The notes below the pieces were generated by a model. The model saw nothing but the letters and a program-made list of their open reading frames with translations. It had not been told where the DNA came from and did no database searches. Both the position numbers and the translations under genes were made by a program. From Bacillota bacterium (GTDB lineage Bacteria; Bacillota; Bacilli; Paenibacillales; JBEGSW01), in the NCBI GenBank assembly GCA_041179705.1, contig JBEGSW010000045.1, positions 1 through 56,531 of the forward strand: 56,531 nt of DNA, given 5' to 3'. This document shows positions 23,708 to 33,124 of this stretch, one piece after another (position 1 is the stretch's first letter; every line of letters begins with the position of its first letter).

Positions 23708-24898
23708 ATGGCAAAAGCTAAATTCGAACGTAACAAACCACACGTAAACATCGGTACTATCGGTCACGTTGACCATGGTAAAACTACTTTAACAGCGGCA
23801 ATCACAACTGTATTGTCCAAGCGTTATGGCGGTGCTGCAGTAGCATTCGACCAAATCGACAAAGCTCCAGAAGAGCGCGAACGCGGTATCACAATCTCCA
23901 CAGCACACGTTGAGTACGAGACTCCTAACCGTCACTATGCTCACGTTGACTGCCCAGGCCATGCTGACTATGTAAAGAACATGATCACTGGTGCTGCTCA
24001 AATGGACGGCGCGATCTTAGTAGTATCTGCTACTGACGGTCCTATGCCACAAACTCGCGAGCACATCCTTTTGTCCCGCCAAGTAGGTGTACCTTACATC
24101 GTTGTATTCATGAACAAATGCGACATGGTTGAAGACGAAGAGTTGCTTGAATTAGTAGAAATGGAAATCCGTGAACTTCTTTCCGAGTACGAATTCCCAG
24201 GCGATGACACTCCAGTTATCCGTGGTTCCGCTCGTGAAGCATTACAAAACCCAGATGGCGCTTGGGCTGACAAGATCGTTGAATTGTTCGAACAAATCGA
24301 CACTTATATCCCATTGCCAGAGCGTGCAACTGACAAGCCTTTCCTTATGCCTGTCGAGGATGTATTCTCCATCACTGGTCGTGGTACAGTTGCAACTGGC
24401 CGCGTAGAGCGTGGTATTGTTAAAGTTGGTGACGAAATCGAAATCATCGGTTTAGTGGAAGAGCCTACTAAGTCTGTCGTAACAGGCGTAGAGATGTTCC
24501 GCAAATTGTTGGATTCCGCACAAGCTGGTGACAACATCGGTGCATTGCTTCGTGGTGTTCAACGTACAGATATCGAGCGTGGTCAAGTTTTGGCGAAACC
24601 AGGTTCTGTTAAGCCTCACACGAACTTCACAGCTCAAATCTACGTATTGACTAAAGAAGAGGGTGGCCGTCATAAGCCATTCTTCACTGGTTACCGTCCA
24701 CAGTTCTACTTCCGTACAACTGACGTAACTGGTATCATTTCTTTACCAGAAGGTACTGAAATGGTTATGCCTGGCGATAACATCACTGTTACGGTTGAAT
24801 TGATCAACCCAATCGCTATGGAAGAAGGAACTCGTTTCGCTATTCGTGAAGGCGGCCGTACAGTAGGCGCTGGTGCAGTAGCAACAATCCAAAAATAA
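23708..24898 (+). CDS. tuf: elongation factor Tu
   Basis: [28 protein letters not shown]. Confidence 0.99.
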
Positions 24899-24925
24899 TT
24901 TTCTTTCTAACGAGAGAAGATAAAT

Positions 24926-24969
24926 AAAAATCCGTTGTTTCAGCTTCCGAGCTGAGACAACGGATTTTT
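24926..24969. terminator. bidirectional intrinsic terminator between tuf and convergent LacI gene
   Basis: aaaaatccgttgtttcagct-tccg-agctgagacaacggattttt, A run 5' and T run 3'. Confidence 0.88.
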
Positions 24970-25982
24970 TATTTTGAAATTGACGATTCTCGAACCATTA
25001 AACGATGAGGGATGATGATCCGACGATCACTTGGCTCCTCACCACGTAATATTCTTAATAAGGTAAATATAGAAGCATAGCCTAATTGATAAATGCCGAT
25101 TTCCATACTTGTAATTTGTGGAGATGAAATCTGTGAAATAATCGTATTGTTAAAACTGACAACAGCGATATCTTCAGGTACTTTTTTACCTAATTCTTTA
25201 AGTTTTTGAATGATACCAAAAGCAATATCATCACTAATGGTTACAAATGCAGTGGGATGATTGGATAAACTCATAACTAAGGGGATTTCATGATAATTTG
25301 TATCAGAATACATACTATACTCAAAAAGTAGTTCTGGTCGAATCGCAATACCTGACTCTTCGAGCGCCTTTGAGTATCCAAGAAATCGATCAGTTGACAT
25401 CACGATACTCCGTGGGCCGCCAATAAATCCGATCGAAGTATGCCCTTGATTGATGAGGTGCATTGTTACATCGTACGAAGCAGTAACGTTATCGTTATCA
25501 ATTGTGAAATGTGAAGACTCATCCGAGTTTCCAATGATGACAAACGGAAAATTTTGATCGGTTAAAAATTGAACAATTGAATCGAAAAAGCGATTACTCA
25601 ACACAACTAATCCATCGACTTTACCACCACGAACTAAATTGACCACTTGTTTCTGTAATTCCACTAGTGTATTTGCTGAAGTCACAATCACATCATAGTT
25701 ATGTTTAGAAGTATAATCTACGATTCCTCGAATGACTTCGTTAAAAAACACGTTACTAAAAGCTTGCTCAGTAGGACCGGGTATAATGATTCCAACGGTT
25801 GAAGTTGATTGTGAAACTAGACTTTTGGCCATTAGATTCGGATGATAATTCAGTTGCTCGATGGCTTTTTTTACTCTATCGACTGTTTCTTGGCTGATTT
25901 TTGGATTTTCTAAAATAACGCGTGATACAGTTGATGGCGAAACACCAGCAAGAGCGGCAACATCTTTAATTGTAACTTTCAT
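24969..25982 (-). CDS. LacI-family transcriptional regulator (MalR/MdxR-like)
   Basis: MKVTIKDVAALAGVSPSTVSRV HTH, LNYHPN hinge, periplasmic-binding-fold core, VPEDIAVVSFNN, RES C-terminus; divergent from the maltodextrin operon. Confidence 0.92.
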   Translation of the reverse strand: MKVTIKDVAALAGVSPSTVSRVILENPKISQETVDRVKKAIEQLNYHPNLMAKSLVSQSTSTVGIIIPGPTEQAFSNVFFNEVIRGIVDYTSKHNYDVIVTSANTLVELQKQVVNLVRGGKVDGLVVLSNRFFDSIVQFLTDQNFPFVIIGNSDESSHFTIDNDNVTASYDVTMHLINQGHTSIGFIGGPRSIVMSTDRFLGYSKALEESGIAIRPELLFEYSMYSDTNYHEIPLVMSLSNHPTAFVTISDDIAFGIIQKLKELGKKVPEDIAVVSFNNTIISQISSPQITSMEIGIYQLGYASIFTLLRILRGEEPSDRRIIIPHRLMVRESSISK

Positions 25983-25998
25983 TTTAAGCCTCACTTTC

Positions 25999-26012
25999 TG
26001 CAAACGTTTGCA
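25999..26012. promoter_or_regulatory. LacI-type operator O1 (TGCAAACGTTTGCA)
   Basis: Perfect 14-bp palindrome with central CG just upstream of the regulator start; identical copy at 26192. Confidence 0.85.
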
Positions 26013-26144
26013 CTACAGAAATTATATAAAAATTGAATATAGAAGTAAATAGAAAGATGAAATCGAAACGGTTCCACTCAAAAAAGTTAAATGTAAGCAA
26101 TAAATATGTTGAATTTAAAGATCCACATGTGCAATAATCAACAA

Positions 26145-26158
26145 TGTAAGCGTAAACA
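26145..26158. promoter_or_regulatory. cre site (CcpA catabolite-responsive element)
   Basis: TGTAAGCGTAAACA, one mismatch from the B. subtilis amyE cre TGTAAGCGTTAACA. Confidence 0.75.
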
Positions 26159-26191
26159 TTATTATTTTTTGTTATTTTAAACAAGATTTAA

Positions 26192-26205
26192 TGCAAACGT
26201 TTGCA
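26192..26205. promoter_or_regulatory. LacI-type operator O2 (TGCAAACGTTTGCA)
   Basis: Perfect palindrome ~30 bp upstream of the first operon gene. Confidence 0.85.
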
Positions 26206-26234
26206 GAAAAATAAATAAATGGGGGTAATATGCA

Positions 26235-27458
26235 ATGAAAAAGGTTTTATCCGTATTAGTAGCACTTTCGTTGGTTGTAGGCTTGTTTGCTGCAATCGGC
26301 TCAACTGCATCAGCGGCTGAGAAGAAAATTGTTGTACTTGTAGGTAATTTGCAAAAAGCTTTGGGTGCAGCTGGAGATTGGGATCCAACTGACACAAAGA
26401 CGGCGATGTATACGGCTGATGGTAAAAATTATTGGTTCACTGGCAAATTGCCAGCCGGCGATTATGAGTACAAAGTAGCTCTAGGTGGCAAAGGCTGGAG
26501 CGAAAACTATGGCGCAGATGGTAAGAAGGATGGCGACAATATTAAGATTAGTACAGGTCTTGCTCGCACAATTACATTCTTCTATAACGATGATACGCAC
26601 AAAATCACAACAAGCCGCCATGTAACATTAGTTGGTAGCTTGCAAGATAAGTTGGGTGCAGAAAAGGCATGGGATCCTACTGCAGCTGAAACACAAATGC
26701 GAACAGTTGATGGTGAGAATTACTTCTTCACAGGTAAACTACCTGCTGGCGAATATGAATATAAGGTAGCAATTGCTGGAAGCTGGACAGAGAACTACGG
26801 TGCTGCTGGTAAAGCGGGTGGCGATAATATTAAGATTTCTCAAGCAGAAGATGGAAATGTTACTTTCGTATATAACGACACAACGCATGAAATTTATGCA
26901 GGTAAACATGTTGCGTTAGTTGGAAATATTCAAAGTGCGATTGGTGCTGCGGGGGACTGGGATCCTGCAACATCAACAACTGTTATGTTACCTCAAAAAG
27001 ACGGTACTTATGTTTACACAACTACAGTCGGTAAAGGGAACTATGAGTACAAGGTAGCTTTGAACGGTAACTGGGATGTGAACTATGGACAAGATGGCAA
27101 GTCAGGTGGAGATAACCTTAAACTTGCTGTTGATAAAGATGCGAAATACAAGTTCACATATGATGACAAATCACATGTAATTAAAGCGGAGATTGTCTTA
27201 ACAAAGAAAATCTTCCCTAAATCCATTAAATTCGAATACCCGAATATCATGCTTAACAAAGGCTTCTCTTATAAGACAACCCTAATTACAAATCCTGGTT
27301 TAATCACGGAGAAACAAGTTAGCTATCGTTCTTCTAACCGAAATGTAGCTACAGTAGATGCTACTGGTAAGATCACAGCAGTTTCCAAAGGTACAGCTAC
27401 AATAACAGCTAGAACACCTTACAACAAGACAGCAACAATGACGATTACAGTTCGTTAA
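26235..27458 (+). CDS. secreted non-catalytic protein: 3x pullulanase X25-like (starch-binding) domains + C-terminal Big_2 Ig-like domain
   Basis: Signal peptide ending ASA-A; three ~96-aa repeats VxLVGxxQ..G..WDP...Y..T..LPAG.YEYKVA..G.W.ENYG..G..GDN; C-terminal YRSSNRNVATVDATGKITAVSKGTATITA typical of Big_2; no GH13 catalytic motifs. Confidence 0.8.
   Translation: MKKVLSVLVALSLVVGLFAAIGSTASAAEKKIVVLVGNLQKALGAAGDWDPTDTKTAMYTADGKNYWFTGKLPAGDYEYKVALGGKGWSENYGADGKKDGDNIKISTGLARTITFFYNDDTHKITTSRHVTLVGSLQDKLGAEKAWDPTAAETQMRTVDGENYFFTGKLPAGEYEYKVAIAGSWTENYGAAGKAGGDNIKISQAEDGNVTFVYNDTTHEIYAGKHVALVGNIQSAIGAAGDWDPATSTTVMLPQKDGTYVYTTTVGKGNYEYKVALNGNWDVNYGQDGKSGGDNLKLAVDKDAKYKFTYDDKSHVIKAEIVLTKKIFPKSIKFEYPNIMLNKGFSYKTTLITNPGLITEKQVSYRSSNRNVATVDATGKITAVSKGTATITARTPYNKTATMTITVR
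26331..27182 (+). repeat. three tandem intragenic domain repeats (~290 bp period): ~26331-26606, ~26622-26894, ~26910-27182
   Basis: Recurring tgggatcc (WDP), tatgagtacaa/tatgaatataa (YEYK), aactatgg/aactacgg (NYG) at a ~96-97 codon interval. Confidence 0.85.
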
Positions 27459-27488
27459 TCCAAAATTCAAAAAAAGGGGAATGTACAA

Positions 27489-28724
27489 ATGAAATTCAAA
27501 AAAGTCGTTTCATTAACAGTAGCAACAGCATTAGTTGCGTCTCTAGCAGTAACAGCGGGCAGCGCATCTGCAGCAACAAAAATCACACCAGAAAAAGGAG
27601 CTAAATTGCTTCTATGGGATGATAAAGATTCCAAGCCATTCTGGGATAAATTGATTCCTCAGTTCCAGAAAAAATATGGCGTAACTGTTAAGTATCAAAT
27701 CGTTGGCGGTCCTGACCAAGATGAGAAATTTGCGAAAGACGGTCCTGCAGGGATTGCAGCTGACGTTGGTGTAATTCCTCATGACAACTTGGCGAAACTA
27801 GTGGATGCTGGTTTATGGTTGCCTAACGATGTGTTTGCAGCGGAAACAAAAGCAAACAACATTAAAGCAGGTGTTACTGCTGGAACATACAAAGGTGTAT
27901 TGTATGGCTACCCAAAAGCGATTGAAACATACGCTTTGTTCTACAACAAAAAATTAGTAAAGACAGCTCCAAAAACTTGGAATGATATTATTGCGCTTTC
28001 CAAAAACAAAGCTATTCAAGATCCAGCTAAAAAGAAATTCACATTCATGGCTGAAGTGAACAACTTCTACTTTGACTATGCATTTATGACTGCTGGTGGT
28101 GGCTATGTATTCGGTAAAGATGGTACAGATCCATCTGACATTGGCTTGAACAATGCAGGTGCTGTTGCTGGTGCTAAGCAATTGAAAGCATTGAAAGCAA
28201 TTTTGCCTTTAAAAGTTGGCGATATTACTTATGATGTAAAAGAATCCTTGTTCCAAAAAGGTCAACTTGCGACTAACATCAACGGTTCTTGGGCAATTTC
28301 TGGTTACCGTAAAGCTGGCTTAGACTTTGGTGTAACTGCTATTCCTGCGGTTAACGGCAAGCCTACAGAATCTTTCTCTGGTGTTAAAATCGTTGGTGTT
28401 AACTCCTACTCCAAATATCCTAAAGCTGCTCGCTTGTTAGCACAATTTGCTACTTCGGCAGATGCACAGTTGTTGAACTACCAAACAACTGGTCAATTAC
28501 CAACAAACTCTAAGGTTTCTGCAAATCCAGCAATCAAGAATGATGTTATCGTACAAGGTTTCTTGCAGCAATTGAAGACTGCACAACCGATGCCAAGTAT
28601 TGCTGAGATGGGTTCCGTATGGGGGCCAATGGGCGCTGCTTTAGCTGATATCTGGGATAAAGATGCAGATCCAAAAACAGCTTTAGATGCTGCTGTAAAG
28701 AAAATTAAGAACGCGATTAAGTAA
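27489..28724 (+). CDS. maltose/maltodextrin ABC transporter substrate-binding protein (no lipobox)
   Basis: DGPAGIAADV, PHDNL, LYGYPKAIETYALFYNKKL, INGSW, PMPSIAEMGSVW: MalE/MdxE/CycB-like motifs; SPase I-type leader; no cysteine anywhere. Confidence 0.88.
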   Translation: MKFKKVVSLTVATALVASLAVTAGSASAATKITPEKGAKLLLWDDKDSKPFWDKLIPQFQKKYGVTVKYQIVGGPDQDEKFAKDGPAGIAADVGVIPHDNLAKLVDAGLWLPNDVFAAETKANNIKAGVTAGTYKGVLYGYPKAIETYALFYNKKLVKTAPKTWNDIIALSKNKAIQDPAKKKFTFMAEVNNFYFDYAFMTAGGGYVFGKDGTDPSDIGLNNAGAVAGAKQLKALKAILPLKVGDITYDVKESLFQKGQLATNINGSWAISGYRKAGLDFGVTAIPAVNGKPTESFSGVKIVGVNSYSKYPKAARLLAQFATSADAQLLNYQTTGQLPTNSKVSANPAIKNDVIVQGFLQQLKTAQPMPSIAEMGSVWGPMGAALADIWDKDADPKTALDAAVKKIKNAIK

Positions 28725-28755
28725 TTAACATGATGTAAGTATGAAAAAACAGAAA

Positions 28756-28789
28756 AGGGCTATCCAGACCGAAATTCCTGGATAGCCCT
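28756..28789 (+). other. intercistronic stem-loop after the SBP gene (mRNA stabiliser / partial terminator)
   Basis: agggctatccag...ctggatagccct 12-bp perfect stem without a strong + strand U tract. Confidence 0.65.
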
Positions 28790-28827
28790 ATCTGTTTCAA
28801 TTCAAGATAGAAAAGAGTGAGAGGCGA

Positions 28828-30144
28828 ATGAATACATACCGTATCGTACCTGCGATTCTATCCCTATTACTGCCAGGTCTTGGTCAATTGTTCAATAAAC
28901 AATGGATCAAGGGCCTGATTTTTGCTGTAATTGGGACGTTTTCGAGTTTATACTTTATAAAAAGTCTTCCGCATGCAGTATGGGGCATTGTTACGCTTGG
29001 AGAGAAGACGCAACGTTTGGTTATCGGAAAAGATGGTATTTCAGAGATGGTTCAAGGTGACCATTCTATCTTATTAATGTTAAACGGTGTTTTTGTTGTT
29101 ACTTTTTTTGCACTTTATGTACTGTTCTGGTTCTTTAATATCAAGGATGCATTTATTGTTGGTGGATTGAAAGAACAAAATTTAAAGTCCCCGACATTTA
29201 AACAAACGCTATATTTTTTATCGGAGACGAAATTCCCAGAATTAATGCTAATTGTTCCGATTATTGGAGTAGTGTTTGTTACAATCGTACCAATCGTATT
29301 CACCGTATTTATTGCGTTTACAAACTATTCTGCACCGAACTATTTACCACCAGCTAAATTATTAGATTGGGTTGGGTTTGAAAATTTCCGAAGACTTGTT
29401 GATTTCGGTGAATATAAAGCAACATTCTTTGGTGTTGCACGTTGGACGTTCATTTGGGCTGTTCTAGCTACTGTTACGACGTTCTTTGGTGGTTTCTTAG
29501 TAGCATTACTTGTAAATCAAAAAGACGTTAAATTTAAATACTTCTGGCGAACGATGCTAATCTTACCATTCGCAGTACCTCAACTAGTATCGTTGTTGGT
29601 TATGCGCAATTTGTTCAATGGTGAGTTTGGGCCGATTAACCAATATTTAAGAAGTTTTGGAATGGAGAACATCCCTTGGTTGACAGATCCATTATGGGCA
29701 AAGGCGACAGTTGTCATCGTTAATATGTGGTTAGGTATTCCGGTTTCTATGATTTTCATTATGGGTATTTTGACAATGATTCCTAAGGATTTATATGAAG
29801 CTGCAGAGATTGACGGTGCTTCTAAAATCAAACAATTTTCAAAAATTACGCTCCCATATGTATTGTTTGCAACGGCTCCGATTATTATCATGCAATTTGC
29901 GGGTAACATTAATAACTTTAACGTTATCTTCTTATTAACGAATGGTAATCCGGTGAATGGTGACTACATGTATGCGGGAGACACTGATTTATTAGTGACG
30001 TGGCTCTATAAATTGACGTTAGACAGTCAGAAATATGATGTTGCTGGTGCAGTAGGTATTGTTATCTTTATCATTATTGCAACATTGTCACTCATTAGTT
30101 ATAGAAATACTTCATCCTTCAAAGAGGAGGATCAAATCCAATGA
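28828..30144 (+). CDS. maltodextrin ABC transporter permease (MalF/MdxF-like)
   Basis: Multiple TM helices, EAA loop LYEAAEIDGASKIKQFSKITLP, FNNFNVIFLL-like and AGDTDLLVTWLYKLT motifs. Confidence 0.9.
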   Translation: MNTYRIVPAILSLLLPGLGQLFNKQWIKGLIFAVIGTFSSLYFIKSLPHAVWGIVTLGEKTQRLVIGKDGISEMVQGDHSILLMLNGVFVVTFFALYVLFWFFNIKDAFIVGGLKEQNLKSPTFKQTLYFLSETKFPELMLIVPIIGVVFVTIVPIVFTVFIAFTNYSAPNYLPPAKLLDWVGFENFRRLVDFGEYKATFFGVARWTFIWAVLATVTTFFGGFLVALLVNQKDVKFKYFWRTMLILPFAVPQLVSLLVMRNLFNGEFGPINQYLRSFGMENIPWLTDPLWAKATVVIVNMWLGIPVSMIFIMGILTMIPKDLYEAAEIDGASKIKQFSKITLPYVLFATAPIIIMQFAGNINNFNVIFLLTNGNPVNGDYMYAGDTDLLVTWLYKLTLDSQKYDVAGAVGIVIFIIIATLSLISYRNTSSFKEEDQIQ

Positions 30145-30989
30145 GCAGAAGAAACAAAAAACCTAAAGTTCGTATTGGTCTAATCCTAAGTTATGCGGCT
30201 CTCATTGCACTAGTGATTATCGCGCTTTATCCAATTGTTTGGATTGTCGCAGCTTCCTTCAGAGAAGGGACATCGTTATATAGTACCGAGTTGTTCCCTA
30301 GAAAGATAACACTAGACCATTATTATGAGTTGTTTACATCGAAAGAATACATGTATACCAGATGGTATACGAATACGCTTCAAGTAGCTTTCCTGACAAT
30401 GATTTTTACAACAACGATTGTCACGATTTCTGGTTATGTGCTCTCGCGATTCCGATTTGGCATGCGGAAGACGTTGTTGAGTTCCATTCTTATTTTGGGG
30501 ATGTTCCCAAGTTTCATGAGTTTAACTGCAATTTACGTTATGCTTGTACAGTTGAAGTTATATGATAATTTGTATGCGCTTGTTGGTATCTATTCTGCCG
30601 GCGCACTGATGGGCTCGTTCCAGGTTAAAGGATTCTTCGATACAATCCCTAAAAGCCTTGAAGAATCAGCCAAGTTAGATGGTGCAAGCAACTTCCAAGT
30701 GATGCGTTTAATCATGCTACCACTTTCGAAGCCGTTGCTCGTATTCATTGCACTTACTTCTTTCACGGGTGCTTGGACAGACTTTATCTTAGCAAGACTG
30801 TTGATTCAAACTCCTGAGAAACAAACGCTCGCCGTGGGATTATATGATCTTGTATCTACGGTACAAACTTCGAATGCTACACTGTTCGCAACAGGCGCAG
30901 TATTAATTGCAGTACCAATTACCGTTCTCTTCATCGTCCTTCAAAAGTATTTAGTCAGTGGGATGATGGCGGGAGCAGAAAAAGGATGA
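30141..30989 (+). CDS. maltodextrin ABC transporter permease (MalG/MdxG-like)
   Basis: EAA loop KGFFDTIPKSLEESAKLDGAS, TLAVGL, QKYLVSGMMAGAEKG C-terminus; ATGA overlap. Confidence 0.9.
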   Translation: MSRRNKKPKVRIGLILSYAALIALVIIALYPIVWIVAASFREGTSLYSTELFPRKITLDHYYELFTSKEYMYTRWYTNTLQVAFLTMIFTTTIVTISGYVLSRFRFGMRKTLLSSILILGMFPSFMSLTAIYVMLVQLKLYDNLYALVGIYSAGALMGSFQVKGFFDTIPKSLEESAKLDGASNFQVMRLIMLPLSKPLLVFIALTSFTGAWTDFILARLLIQTPEKQTLAVGLYDLVSTVQTSNATLFATGAVLIAVPITVLFIVLQKYLVSGMMAGAEKG

Positions 30990-32560
30990 TTAGAATGAGA
31001 AAAGCGATAATTACTTTAATGCTCCTTTCGTTGGTTGTCTCTTTAAGTGGCGTTTCAACAGCAGCATCTACACCAAAAAGCAAAACGGGTGTATATTATG
31101 AAATTTTCGTACGTTCTTTCAATGATTCGAATGGTGACGGGATTGGCGATCTAAAAGGCGTCACGGCTAAACTCGATTACCTAAAAAGTTTAGGTGTAAA
31201 AGGGATTTGGTTGATGCCAATTACAGCAAGTCCGAGTTATCACGGCTATGATACAACGGATTATTACAAGATAAATCCAGACTACGGAACAACAGCTGAC
31301 TTGAAAGCGTTAGTAACAGCTGCACATAAAAAAGATATAAAAATCATTATGGATTTGGTTGTTAACCACACGAGCAGTCAACACCCGTGGTTCGTGGATG
31401 CATCAACGAATCCTGCGAGTAAGTATCGCGACTACTTTGTCTTTGCAACAGAAGATGACGATATCGATGCTCAAAGTGCGACGGGAGCAGGAAATGCATG
31501 GCATAGTGCAGCAACAGGAAAGTATTTAGGTATTTTCTGGAGCGGAATGCCAGACTGGAATTTCAACAATAAAGCAGTTCGTGCTGAGATGGTGAAAATC
31601 GGCCAATATTGGTTAGATCCTAAAATAGCTGGCGTAGATGGCTATCGGCTCGATGCAGCCAAACACATTTACGAAGACTTTGCGGAGCAAAATAAAACCA
31701 AAGCAAATGAGCGTGGCGTTGCATGGTGGCAGGAATTCCGAACAGGTTTGAATAAGGTGAACAAGAATGCATATCTAGTAGGTGAGATTTGGGATGGCCC
31801 GTCTGTTGTTGCACCATACTTGAATAAAGCATTAAACTCCGGTTTCAACTTCGAGATTGGCAAAAGTATCGTTGAGAACGCAAAGAGTGGTTCCGATGGT
31901 GGAGTCGGTTTTATCTTAAACCGCGTTCACGAATACTTTAAAAAACAATCAGGCGGTACATTTGTAGATGCACCATTCTTAACAAATCATGATCAGACGC
32001 GAGTGATGTCTGAATTAGAAGGCAATGTGAATAAAGCCAAAGTAGCGGCAAGTATGTTGTTGACTTTACCTGGTAATCCATTTGTCTACTACGGCGAAGA
32101 AATTGGGATGCAAGGATTGAAGTCTGACGGAGATGAAGCACTTCGCACGCCTTTCCTTTGGACCGCTAAAAAATCAAAAGGCCAAACGACAGTCATGGAA
32201 GGCTATGGCGATCAAGCAACAGGTATTAATGTAGAAACACAACTCAAAAGCTCTTCCTCATTGTTGAATCATTACAAAAAAATGATCGGTTGGAGAAACG
32301 CGGATTATACATTAAGTGATGGAACAATCGGTGAATACACAATTAGTGATACAACAGTAGCAGCTTGGACGCGTTCGGCAAATAAGAAGAACACATTAGT
32401 ACTTCATAACTTAACTTCCAAAACCAAGACGATAACAATCAATGGTTCTGACAATACAATGAAGTTTAAAAAGGTTTCGAAGCAAACGGGTACTGGTGCA
32501 AAAGTGAGCGGAAATAAAGTTACAATCCCTGCATACAGCACAGTACTGATGAGTCAATAA
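30986..32560 (+). CDS. secreted GH13 alpha-amylase (GH13_36-like, AmyA type)
   Basis: YYEIFVRSF, DGIGDLKG, SYHGYD, DLVVNH, GYRLDAAKH (nucleophile), VGEIW (acid/base), FLTNHD, YYGEEIG; CSR-V MPDWN; signal peptide without Cys; start 30986 or 30995. Confidence 0.9.
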   Translation: MIRMRKAIITLMLLSLVVSLSGVSTAASTPKSKTGVYYEIFVRSFNDSNGDGIGDLKGVTAKLDYLKSLGVKGIWLMPITASPSYHGYDTTDYYKINPDYGTTADLKALVTAAHKKDIKIIMDLVVNHTSSQHPWFVDASTNPASKYRDYFVFATEDDDIDAQSATGAGNAWHSAATGKYLGIFWSGMPDWNFNNKAVRAEMVKIGQYWLDPKIAGVDGYRLDAAKHIYEDFAEQNKTKANERGVAWWQEFRTGLNKVNKNAYLVGEIWDGPSVVAPYLNKALNSGFNFEIGKSIVENAKSGSDGGVGFILNRVHEYFKKQSGGTFVDAPFLTNHDQTRVMSELEGNVNKAKVAASMLLTLPGNPFVYYGEEIGMQGLKSDGDEALRTPFLWTAKKSKGQTTVMEGYGDQATGINVETQLKSSSSLLNHYKKMIGWRNADYTLSDGTIGEYTISDTTVAAWTRSANKKNTLVLHNLTSKTKTITINGSDNTMKFKKVSKQTGTGAKVSGNKVTIPAYSTVLMSQ

Positions 32561-32586
32561 ATATAATAGAAGAAACATGTATTTTC

Positions 32587-32631
32587 AGCCCCTATTTTAT
32601 AAGGGAAATCCCTTATAAAATAGGGGCTTTT
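32587..32631 (+). terminator. terminator of the starch operon (42-bp near-perfect palindrome)
   Basis: agcccctattttataaggga-aa-tcccttataaaataggggct then ttt. Confidence 0.85.
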
Positions 32632-32647
32632 GTGTATAAAAAAAGAG

Positions 32648-32676
32648 TTGACTCTTGATATCAGCTCCTATATAAT
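32648..32676 (+). promoter_or_regulatory. sigma-A promoter of S10 operon
   Basis: TTGACT-17bp-TATAAT with A-rich UP element. Confidence 0.85.
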
Positions 32677-32682
32677 GTTGAA

Positions 32683-33124
<442 letters not shown>

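Follow-up and report, generated by a model that had tools for sequence, protein, structure and literature searches.

The window (the whole 56,531-nucleotide stretch of DNA that was analysed) comes from an uncultured freshwater bacterium of the order Paenibacillales and carries a maltodextrin locus (24898-32816) whose features are collected in Table 1. The gene at positions 26235-27458 of the forward strand encodes a protein of 407 aa, begins with ATG and ends with its own TAA, and a gap of 30 nt separates it from the gene for an ABC binding protein. To judge from gene order and content, it leads a maltodextrin ABC/GH13 operon, in agreement with the original prediction of a first gene with its own Shine-Dalgarno sequence and stop. 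The operon amylase keeps the conserved regions of GH13 and has no CBM in Pfam. Control by the divergent LacI-family regulator is predicted from the perfect palindrome TGCAAACGTTTGCA, which lies between the promoter-like sites and the Shine-Dalgarno sequence. There are two exact copies of this palindrome in the 1.41-Mb genome, where 0.006 are expected, and both fall in the intergenic region between lacI and the 407-aa gene. Furthermore, in 9 of 11 loci from relatives, sites with at most two mismatches to it lie upstream of a giant enzyme, described below, or of the binding protein. The promoter scan gave 15 sites against 22.9 expected from shuffled sequences and is thus no evidence for a promoter.

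Table 1. Features of the maltodextrin locus in the window, and basic proteins without a lipobox elsewhere in the same genome (contig:position)
Feature	Position	Strand	Basis
LacI-family regulator, MalR-like, divergent	24969..25982	-	Pfam, NCBIfam
Operator copy 2, perfect, just upstream of regulator gene	25999..26012	.	exact-match count
Two weak sigma-70-like promoter matches (9 of 12)	26109..26165	+	promoter scan
Perfect palindrome, predicted LacI-type operator	26192..26205	.	position between promoter-like sites and Shine-Dalgarno
Shine-Dalgarno GGGGGT	26221..26226	+	sequence; 8 nt upstream of ATG of 407-aa gene
Gene for secreted protein with three X25 and one Big_2	26235..27458	+	ORF, Pfam, AlphaFold, orthologues
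Sec signal peptide, residues 1-27, ends ASA	26235..26315	+	pattern scan
X25 repeat 1, residues 31-126; W49, K80, W88, N102	26325..26612	+	Pfam
X25 repeat 2, residues 128-222; W146, K177, W184, N198	26616..26900	+	Pfam
X25 repeat 3, residues 224-319; W242, K273, W280, N294	26904..27191	+	Pfam
Basic Big_2 Ig-like tail, residues 322-407, candidate wall tether	27198..27455	+	Pfam
Maltodextrin-type ABC binding protein, no lipobox, mature pI 9.4	27489..28724	+	Pfam, NCBIfam
13-bp hairpin between binding-protein and permease genes	28756..28789	.	scan
MalF-like permease	28828..30144	+	Pfam
MalG-like permease	30141..30989	+	Pfam
Secreted GH13 alpha-amylase (Alpha-amylase + SusG_C), mature pI 8.8, no lipobox	30986..32560	+	Pfam
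19-bp intrinsic terminator, operon end, before rpsJ promoter-like site	32587..32628	+	scan
Basic lipobox-less proteins besides those of the window	C11:14386, C19:4517, C29:33372, C29:34465, C34:2785		
Basic lipobox-less proteins, continued	C39:4398, C60:76572, C55:14617, C53:3499, C3:5399		

Every residue of the 407-aa protein is accounted for by a signal peptide, three X25 repeats and a Big_2 tail. Pfam PF22058 (X25_BaPul_like) matches three stretches with 276 bits against a cut-off of 27 (E 7.5e-84), single repeats scoring 95-103 bits each, and PF02368 (Big_2) matches residues 329-393 with 47.9 bits against a cut-off of 22.8; NCBIfam assigns no family. The repeats are 95-96 aa long and 43-60% identical to one another (58/96, 45/97 and 41/96), and their WDP, YEYK and W-x-x-NYG motifs are located at residues 49/77/88, 146/174/184 and 242/270/280. 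The signal peptide is the sole hydrophobic stretch, with a peak Kyte-Doolittle value of 2.65 and values of at most 0.82 after residue 30, and its terminal motif, with no Cys, suggests cleavage by signal peptidase I. A scan of the whole protein sequence detected neither Cys nor LPxTG, Pfam at E 0.1 detected no cohesin, dockerin or sortase signal, and neither Pfam nor the AlphaFold model contains a GH13 catalytic barrel. The protein had been described, before these comparisons, as stand-alone and non-catalytic, with three motif-bearing repeats of about 96 aa followed by some 80 aa of Big_2, and this description stands in every part. The mature protein has a pI of 8.7 and its tail a pI of 10.4.

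Several observations concern the wider setting of the locus. It interrupts the ribosomal-protein cluster between tuf and rpsJ, and neither gene was found near the maltodextrin locus in the nine relatives' loci examined. The genome (1.41 Mb, 90% complete, 17 GH13 matches) also encodes an orphan lipoprotein paralogue of the binding protein (C7:5367-6656; 34% identity, pI 6.5) with no adjacent permease, and an MsmX-like ATPase (C58:39024) that could serve the maltodextrin operon. No other genome searched belongs to the same family. The organism was detected in runs from freshwater and aquaculture, and runs with a low word share were disregarded for habitat.

Orthologues, giant amylopullulanases and the origin of the repeats

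Several lines of evidence indicate that the gene is intact and subject to selection. Three full-length orthologues from other species (P0151, P0152 and P0154) have the same architecture at 61-65% identity. An earlier profile-library search and a contig scan of 19 loci had recovered only the query as a full-length member, and the orphan status of the protein was rejected once a region search gave these three orthologues; a metagenome scan with P0151 recovered three distant loci and no orthologue. In a quick tree of 82 domains over 96 columns, all 12 repeats of the four species form one clade (SH-aLRT 99), which is placed weakly (87) among the X25s of Bacillota. A single X25 was therefore triplicated within this lineage. 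A first tree, built without the orthologues, had set repeat 3 apart from the others, and that placement was dropped once the orthologues joined all 12; neither of these quick trees, with about 96 columns each, identifies a donor.

Variation within the species points the same way. A contig of another public run (X3, which is not the best-matching one) covers positions 25720-32509 with seven other letters and no gap, and all five SNPs listed within the gene are synonymous, where 23% would be expected per random change. Two cluster members of the protein carry 21 and 23 substitutions and leave all 12 site residues unchanged. RNA-library contigs from two runs of one study cover the 407-aa gene and the binding protein, one of them bridging both, and leave lacI uncovered; such contigs are no proof of transcription, their coverage gaps are not read as absence and their depth is not ranked.

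The core operon without the 407-aa gene is common in the order. X25 scores above the cut-off in 88 of 401 genomes, and among the 150 matches listed (of 260) the X25 frames are nearly all 1,650-2,630 aa long, the relatives contributing four short frames of 236-842 aa to these matches. In two relatives (G015 and G043) an X25-led, SLH-anchored amylopullulanase of about 2,500 aa sits between lacI and the binding protein. Searching this genome by tblastn with the giant as query revealed neither a giant amylopullulanase nor a separate secreted pullulanase half, the best match being a 654-aa pullulanase without a signal peptide. Given that the giant occupies the same slot in relatives and is absent here, the 407-aa protein likely replaces its binding modules, and the gene may descend directly from a giant amylopullulanase.

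The near confinement of X25 in the order to very long frames, among the matches listed, together with the giant in the same slot in G015 and G043, could also be taken to mean that the gene is what is left of a broken and decaying amylopullulanase, or that it arose in the assembly. We regard this as extremely improbable, given the three full-length orthologues, the synonymous character of the listed SNPs, the independent contig that confirms frame and stop, and the missing secreted pullulanase half. In addition, the repeats were triplicated within the lineage, whereas the giants have a pair of divergent X25s at their start. The gene is thus confirmed, by sequence comparison, as intact and not a broken pullulanase, as originally proposed; its homologues are not all pullulanase fragments, for full-length, enzyme-free ones exist and keep the site residues. 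A further enzyme-free starch-binding protein is encoded beyond the lacI of the orthologous operon of another relative (G016, L117:13121-17839): it has 1,572 aa, 13 CBM25 and one CBM35, no Pfam catalytic domain and an operator-like site in front.

Fold and candidate sugar sites of the X25 repeats

An AlphaFold model built on the four orthologues folds into four beta-sandwiches with a mean pLDDT of 82.4; an earlier model with too few aligned rows had left Big_2 unfolded. Repeat 2 of the model superposes on the X25 of Bacillus acidopullulyticus pullulanase (BaPul; 2WAN, residues 163-259) with Z 17.1 and rmsd 1.1 over 93 aligned residues, and on the X25 of Sca5 (7RPY) with Z 12.7 and rmsd 2.0 over 92. 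The tail superposes on the Big_2 of 7R3T with Z 13.4 and rmsd 1.7 over 81 residues (TM 0.89-0.95 in Atlas), which confirms its Ig fold, and its fold matches are Ig domains of phage, S-layer and glucanase proteins. The best Foldseek matches of both models are Sca5 X25-2, BaPul X25, SusF and SusE, and the profile and Foldseek check that the original prediction had proposed for the repeats accordingly recovers the X25 family and fold (PF22058). The protein also passes Pfam AMPK1_CBM with 33.5 bits against a cut-off of 26.8 and barely passes SusF_SusE (28.3 against 27.5).

The residues that bind glycogen in AMPK beta1 are W100, K126, W133 and N150 (PMC4032982). Profile alignment, weak at E 0.2-1.9, puts the YEYK..W segment of the repeats on AMPK beta1 102-135, at K126 and W133; the invariant first W and the N of the repeats have a plausible spacing but lie outside the aligned stretch. 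All 12 repeats of the four species have the W, K, W and N. The repeats are 14-23% identical to proven starch binders, among which tandem X25 modules of Sca5/Sas20 and SusE/F are reported to bind starch and single Sca5 X25 modules are reported not to (PMC9112005). Based on sequence, model and analogy, the 407-aa protein is very probably an alpha-glucan-binding accessory protein.

The original prediction named Bacteroides SusE/SusF and the Sas proteins of Ruminococcus bromii as functional analogues. The non-catalytic starch-binding type that this implied is retained; the term itself falls short, as superposition and Foldseek show the same X25 fold and so a closer relationship than analogy. SusE and SusF are outer-membrane lipoproteins that work with SusC/SusD in a diderm. 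Those of Bacteroides thetaiotaomicron (4FCH, 4FE9) resemble the 407-aa protein, with a Foldseek E of 8e-8 between SusF and its model, in having two to three tandem X25-like modules and no catalytic domain and in being encoded with a surface amylase and an uptake system. The 407-aa protein differs in having no Cys or lipobox and in having ABC neighbours, and an outer membrane is not supported in this genome, 90% complete, where neither Omp85 (0/1) nor TamB (0/1) was found. Sas20 and Sca5/Sca3 of R. bromii are likewise secreted by a Firmicute, have no catalytic domain and carry X25 beta-sandwiches in tandem with two Trp per module (PMC9112005, PMC4611034), and Sca5 X25 is the best Foldseek match (7RPY, E 6e-11). 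They are attached in the amylosome by dockerin, cohesin or sortase (PMC9112005, PMC4611034), whereas the 407-aa protein is about 20% identical to them and has three repeats of BaPul subtype, a basic Big_2 tail and no known anchor, and heads an ABC operon. Because the anchors that define SusE/SusF and Sas/Sca are absent, it is a member of neither group.

Closest in sequence and structure is BaPul X25 (E 4e-11), a member of the same Pfam family, and the giants of Paenibacillales share the operon slot and operator in G015 and G043. In BaPul and the giants, however, X25 is accessory to a GH13 enzyme with PUD, CBM48 and SLH, whereas here it is triplicated and enzyme-free. BaPul X25 is described as dispensable for pullulanase activity, with no ligand demonstrated in that account (PMC4712565). 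This leaves room for another ligand (cyclodextrin, glycogen only or a surface glucan of the cell itself) or for a structural surface role unrelated to the transporter, and non-catalytic X25 arrays with sorting tails are indeed found on many proteins of other phyla. We consider both alternatives improbable, given that the gene lies under a mal-type operator in an amylopullulanase slot and that X25 is fused to MalE in ABC operons elsewhere. Among the matches from other phyla, 8 of the 35 scanned have a T9SS C-terminal domain and no GH13, and other non-catalytic tandem-X25 proteins have FlgD-Ig, PF07589 or dockerin tails (examples are P0012, P0020, P0029, P0058, P0071, P0087, P0114, P0217 and P0234).

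The fusions form a second link between X25 and maltodextrin import. The X25 region has 117 further matches. Among them are 42 MalE-like proteins, 20 with one and 22 with two X25 domains at the C terminus, and they come from Anaerolineae wherever named (P0169-P0267; e.g., WP_195169594.1, Phototrophicus methaneseepsis). W-K-W is kept in all 64 of the X25 domains fused to MalE. In a class search, 3 of 121 genomes have a full fusion (L223:4571-6232, L224:10724-12268 and L225:10375-11937), and permease genes follow it in all three full-length loci fetched. One locus adds an orthologue of the operon amylase (41% identical), and its fusion protein has a lipobox, which means that X25 does not serve as an anchor there; most of the Anaerolineae fusions have no lipobox. 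The fusions resemble the window system in the W-K-W site, in the coupling of X25 to a maltodextrin ABC binding protein and in the permeases that follow, and differ in being one polypeptide, strongly acidic, with one or two C-terminal X25s. On the tree of 82 domains their X25s separate from the window repeats, and this separate lineage points to an independent coupling of X25 to maltodextrin import. A literature search, subscription papers outside its reach, found no paper on the 407-aa protein, on the fusions or on the lineage-wide switch described below; homologues are listed in Figs S16-S18 of a published supplement (PMC9112005).

Basic charge, loss of the lipobox and proposed retention at the wall

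In all four species a basic tail (pI 10.1-10.6) follows an acidic X25 part (pI 4.6-5.4). Within this genome, where signal and lipobox classes were assigned by pattern scans, AxA-type signals without a lipobox and pI values of 8.8-9.7 are found in eight ABC binding proteins, PrsA, a NosL-domain protein and both secreted GH13 amylases. All 8 lipobox-less ABC binding proteins have a net charge of +10 to +17, whereas all 6 lipidated ones range from -1 to -19 (Fisher p 3e-4). The best matches in relatives are acidic or neutral lipoproteins (MalE 24/24, amylase 8/9), and the lipobox lost here is kept there in PrsA (19/19), UrtA (18/19) and ChvE-like proteins (11/12 distinct), the UrtA and ChvE-like exceptions being incomplete pieces. 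By pattern, 115 of 120 matches to the operon binding protein have a lipobox; the other five are the query, two orthologues, one incomplete record and one pattern miss. Its two closest orthologues are lipobox-less, with 75% and 69% identity and a pI of 9.6. Three tandem PstS paralogues of this genome (C29:32382-35400), one a lipoprotein (pI 5.9) and two basic and lipobox-less (pI 9.3 and 9.4), offer a built-in control for the switch from lipoprotein to basic protein. Loss of the lipoprotein pathway was rejected, since Lgt is present along with 28 lipobox proteins.

Electrostatic retention on the wall is the simplest reading that this basic, anchor-less pattern suggests. An electrostatically wall-held, BspA-like class is defined by absence of a lipobox, basic charge, association with the cell and release by high salt. 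BspA itself is not known to carry a lipid anchor and is retained electrostatically. The first two properties are found in the 407-aa protein (mature pI 8.7) and in the operon binding protein (pI 9.4). BspA of Lactobacillus fermentum, a basic, surface-exposed FliY homologue (PMC10213525), offers an earlier case of a basic ABC binding protein retained on the wall of a Gram-positive bacterium, as is suggested here for that of the operon; it is a single cystine-binding protein and no part of a switch that takes in binding proteins, PrsA and amylases across a lineage. The Gram-positive membrane-wall interface is described as densely negative in charge, and PrsA as normally a lipoprotein (PMC12445088). 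Two family searches of the genome, 90% complete, did not find the anionic wall-polymer genes CsaB and TagB/F, and Big_2 has no established function as a wall anchor. From the sequence pattern and these analogies, we think it more likely than not that the tail holds the 407-aa protein on the wall by charge. An uncleaved signal acting as a membrane anchor of the lipobox-less proteins is possible.

Other proteins of this genome hint that Big_2 is a reused surface module: one consists of a signal and three Big_2 domains only (C11:41481-42398, pI 10.3), another has two Big_2 and a trypsin domain (C11:38904-40559) and a contig-end piece ends in Big_2 (C50:4519-4797, pI 10.4). In Bacillaceae, an S-layer may bound a space that resembles a periplasm (PMC4232325). 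The genome analysed here yielded no S-layer protein. Two basic proteins without a Pfam family, at first suspected of being such, are ABC binding proteins, C19:4517 by its Atlas score of 0.98 and its permease neighbours and C34:2785 by its permease neighbours only.

With no recognised anchor, the protein could also bind starch and yet be released into the medium. It would then act freely with its several CBMs, by coating or loosening granules or by hoarding glucan, maybe dispensably, and its basic tail would reflect a composition bias of secreted proteins across the lineage. A crude scan of this genome finds 26 of 38 signal-peptide proteins with a pI above 8. Cgt of Actinoplanes sp. SE50/110, also a stand-alone, secreted, non-catalytic starch binder of a monoderm, is reported to have no growth phenotype upon deletion (PMC7275007); it has a single CBM20 and no Ig tail. 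We nevertheless judge free release rather unlikely. The charge is concentrated in the tail, next to an acidic X25 part, in all four species, the lipidated paralogues of the same genome are not basic, and the anchor-less operon binding protein must stay near its permease, so that some retention mechanism is needed.

A defined complex with the operon amylase or binding protein, in which Big_2 or the acidic X25 part docks, would rebuild without a covalent link the CBM-enzyme or MalE-X25 fusions of other organisms. The natural MalE-X25 fusions, the complementary charges of the X25 part (acidic) and the binding protein (basic), and an amylase that has no CBM in Pfam speak for it. The amylase (pI 8.8) is basic like the tail, however, Pfam finds no cohesin or dockerin, and the fusion X25s, as a separate lineage, indicate a functional link rather than an inherited interface. 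A complex is therefore unlikely in our estimation, and docking of the tail to the amylase, which the original prediction had offered beside a wall tether, appears less likely than wall retention.

Proposed role and significance

We propose that the X25 sites bind starch or maltodextrin chains while the tail keeps the protein on the negatively charged wall, a combined model that we hold to be somewhat better supported than not. In this model, the LacI repressor would release the operon when maltodextrins are present. Each X25 repeat would then, in all likelihood, stack alpha-1,4-glucan on two Trp, either one repeat at a time, in the manner of SusF, or with two domains forming a clamp, in the manner of Sca5/Sas20, and the basic tail would probably hold the protein on the wall by charge, as may other lipobox-less basic envelope proteins of the lineage. 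The CBM-less amylase would cut the captured glucan, and its products would pass by way of the binding protein to the permeases. The 407-aa protein would thereby supply, from a separate gene, the modules that relatives carry on a giant of about 2,500 aa and Anaerolineae on a MalE fusion.

A more far-reaching reading is that this freshwater lineage with its small genome rebuilt the Gram-positive envelope, in which PrsA, the amylases and roughly one in two ABC binding proteins would have lost the lipid anchor and, being basic, be held by charge in a periplasm-like wall space that no outer membrane encloses; the 407-aa protein would then be the starch arm of a first anchor-free, Sus-like system, replacing the giant and feeding an unanchored MalE, a coupling to which Anaerolineae would have come independently through the fusion of X25 with MalE. 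We advance this only tentatively, as doubtful on present comparisons.

Gut Bacteroides and Ruminococcus have non-catalytic X25 starch binders, held by lipid, dockerin or sortase. The 407-aa protein is small, cysteine-free, of BaPul subtype and encoded in an ABC-importer operon, and it is a direct test case of whether BaPul-type X25 binds starch and whether the repeats do so alone or as a clamp. The coupling of X25 to ABC import arose at least twice, as the MalE-X25 fusions suggest. The lineage-wide change of acidic lipoproteins into basic proteins without an anchor is probably a larger lead than the 407-aa protein itself: if these proteins stay cell-bound, they would represent a route to ABC uptake and protein folding without lipid anchors in a monoderm.
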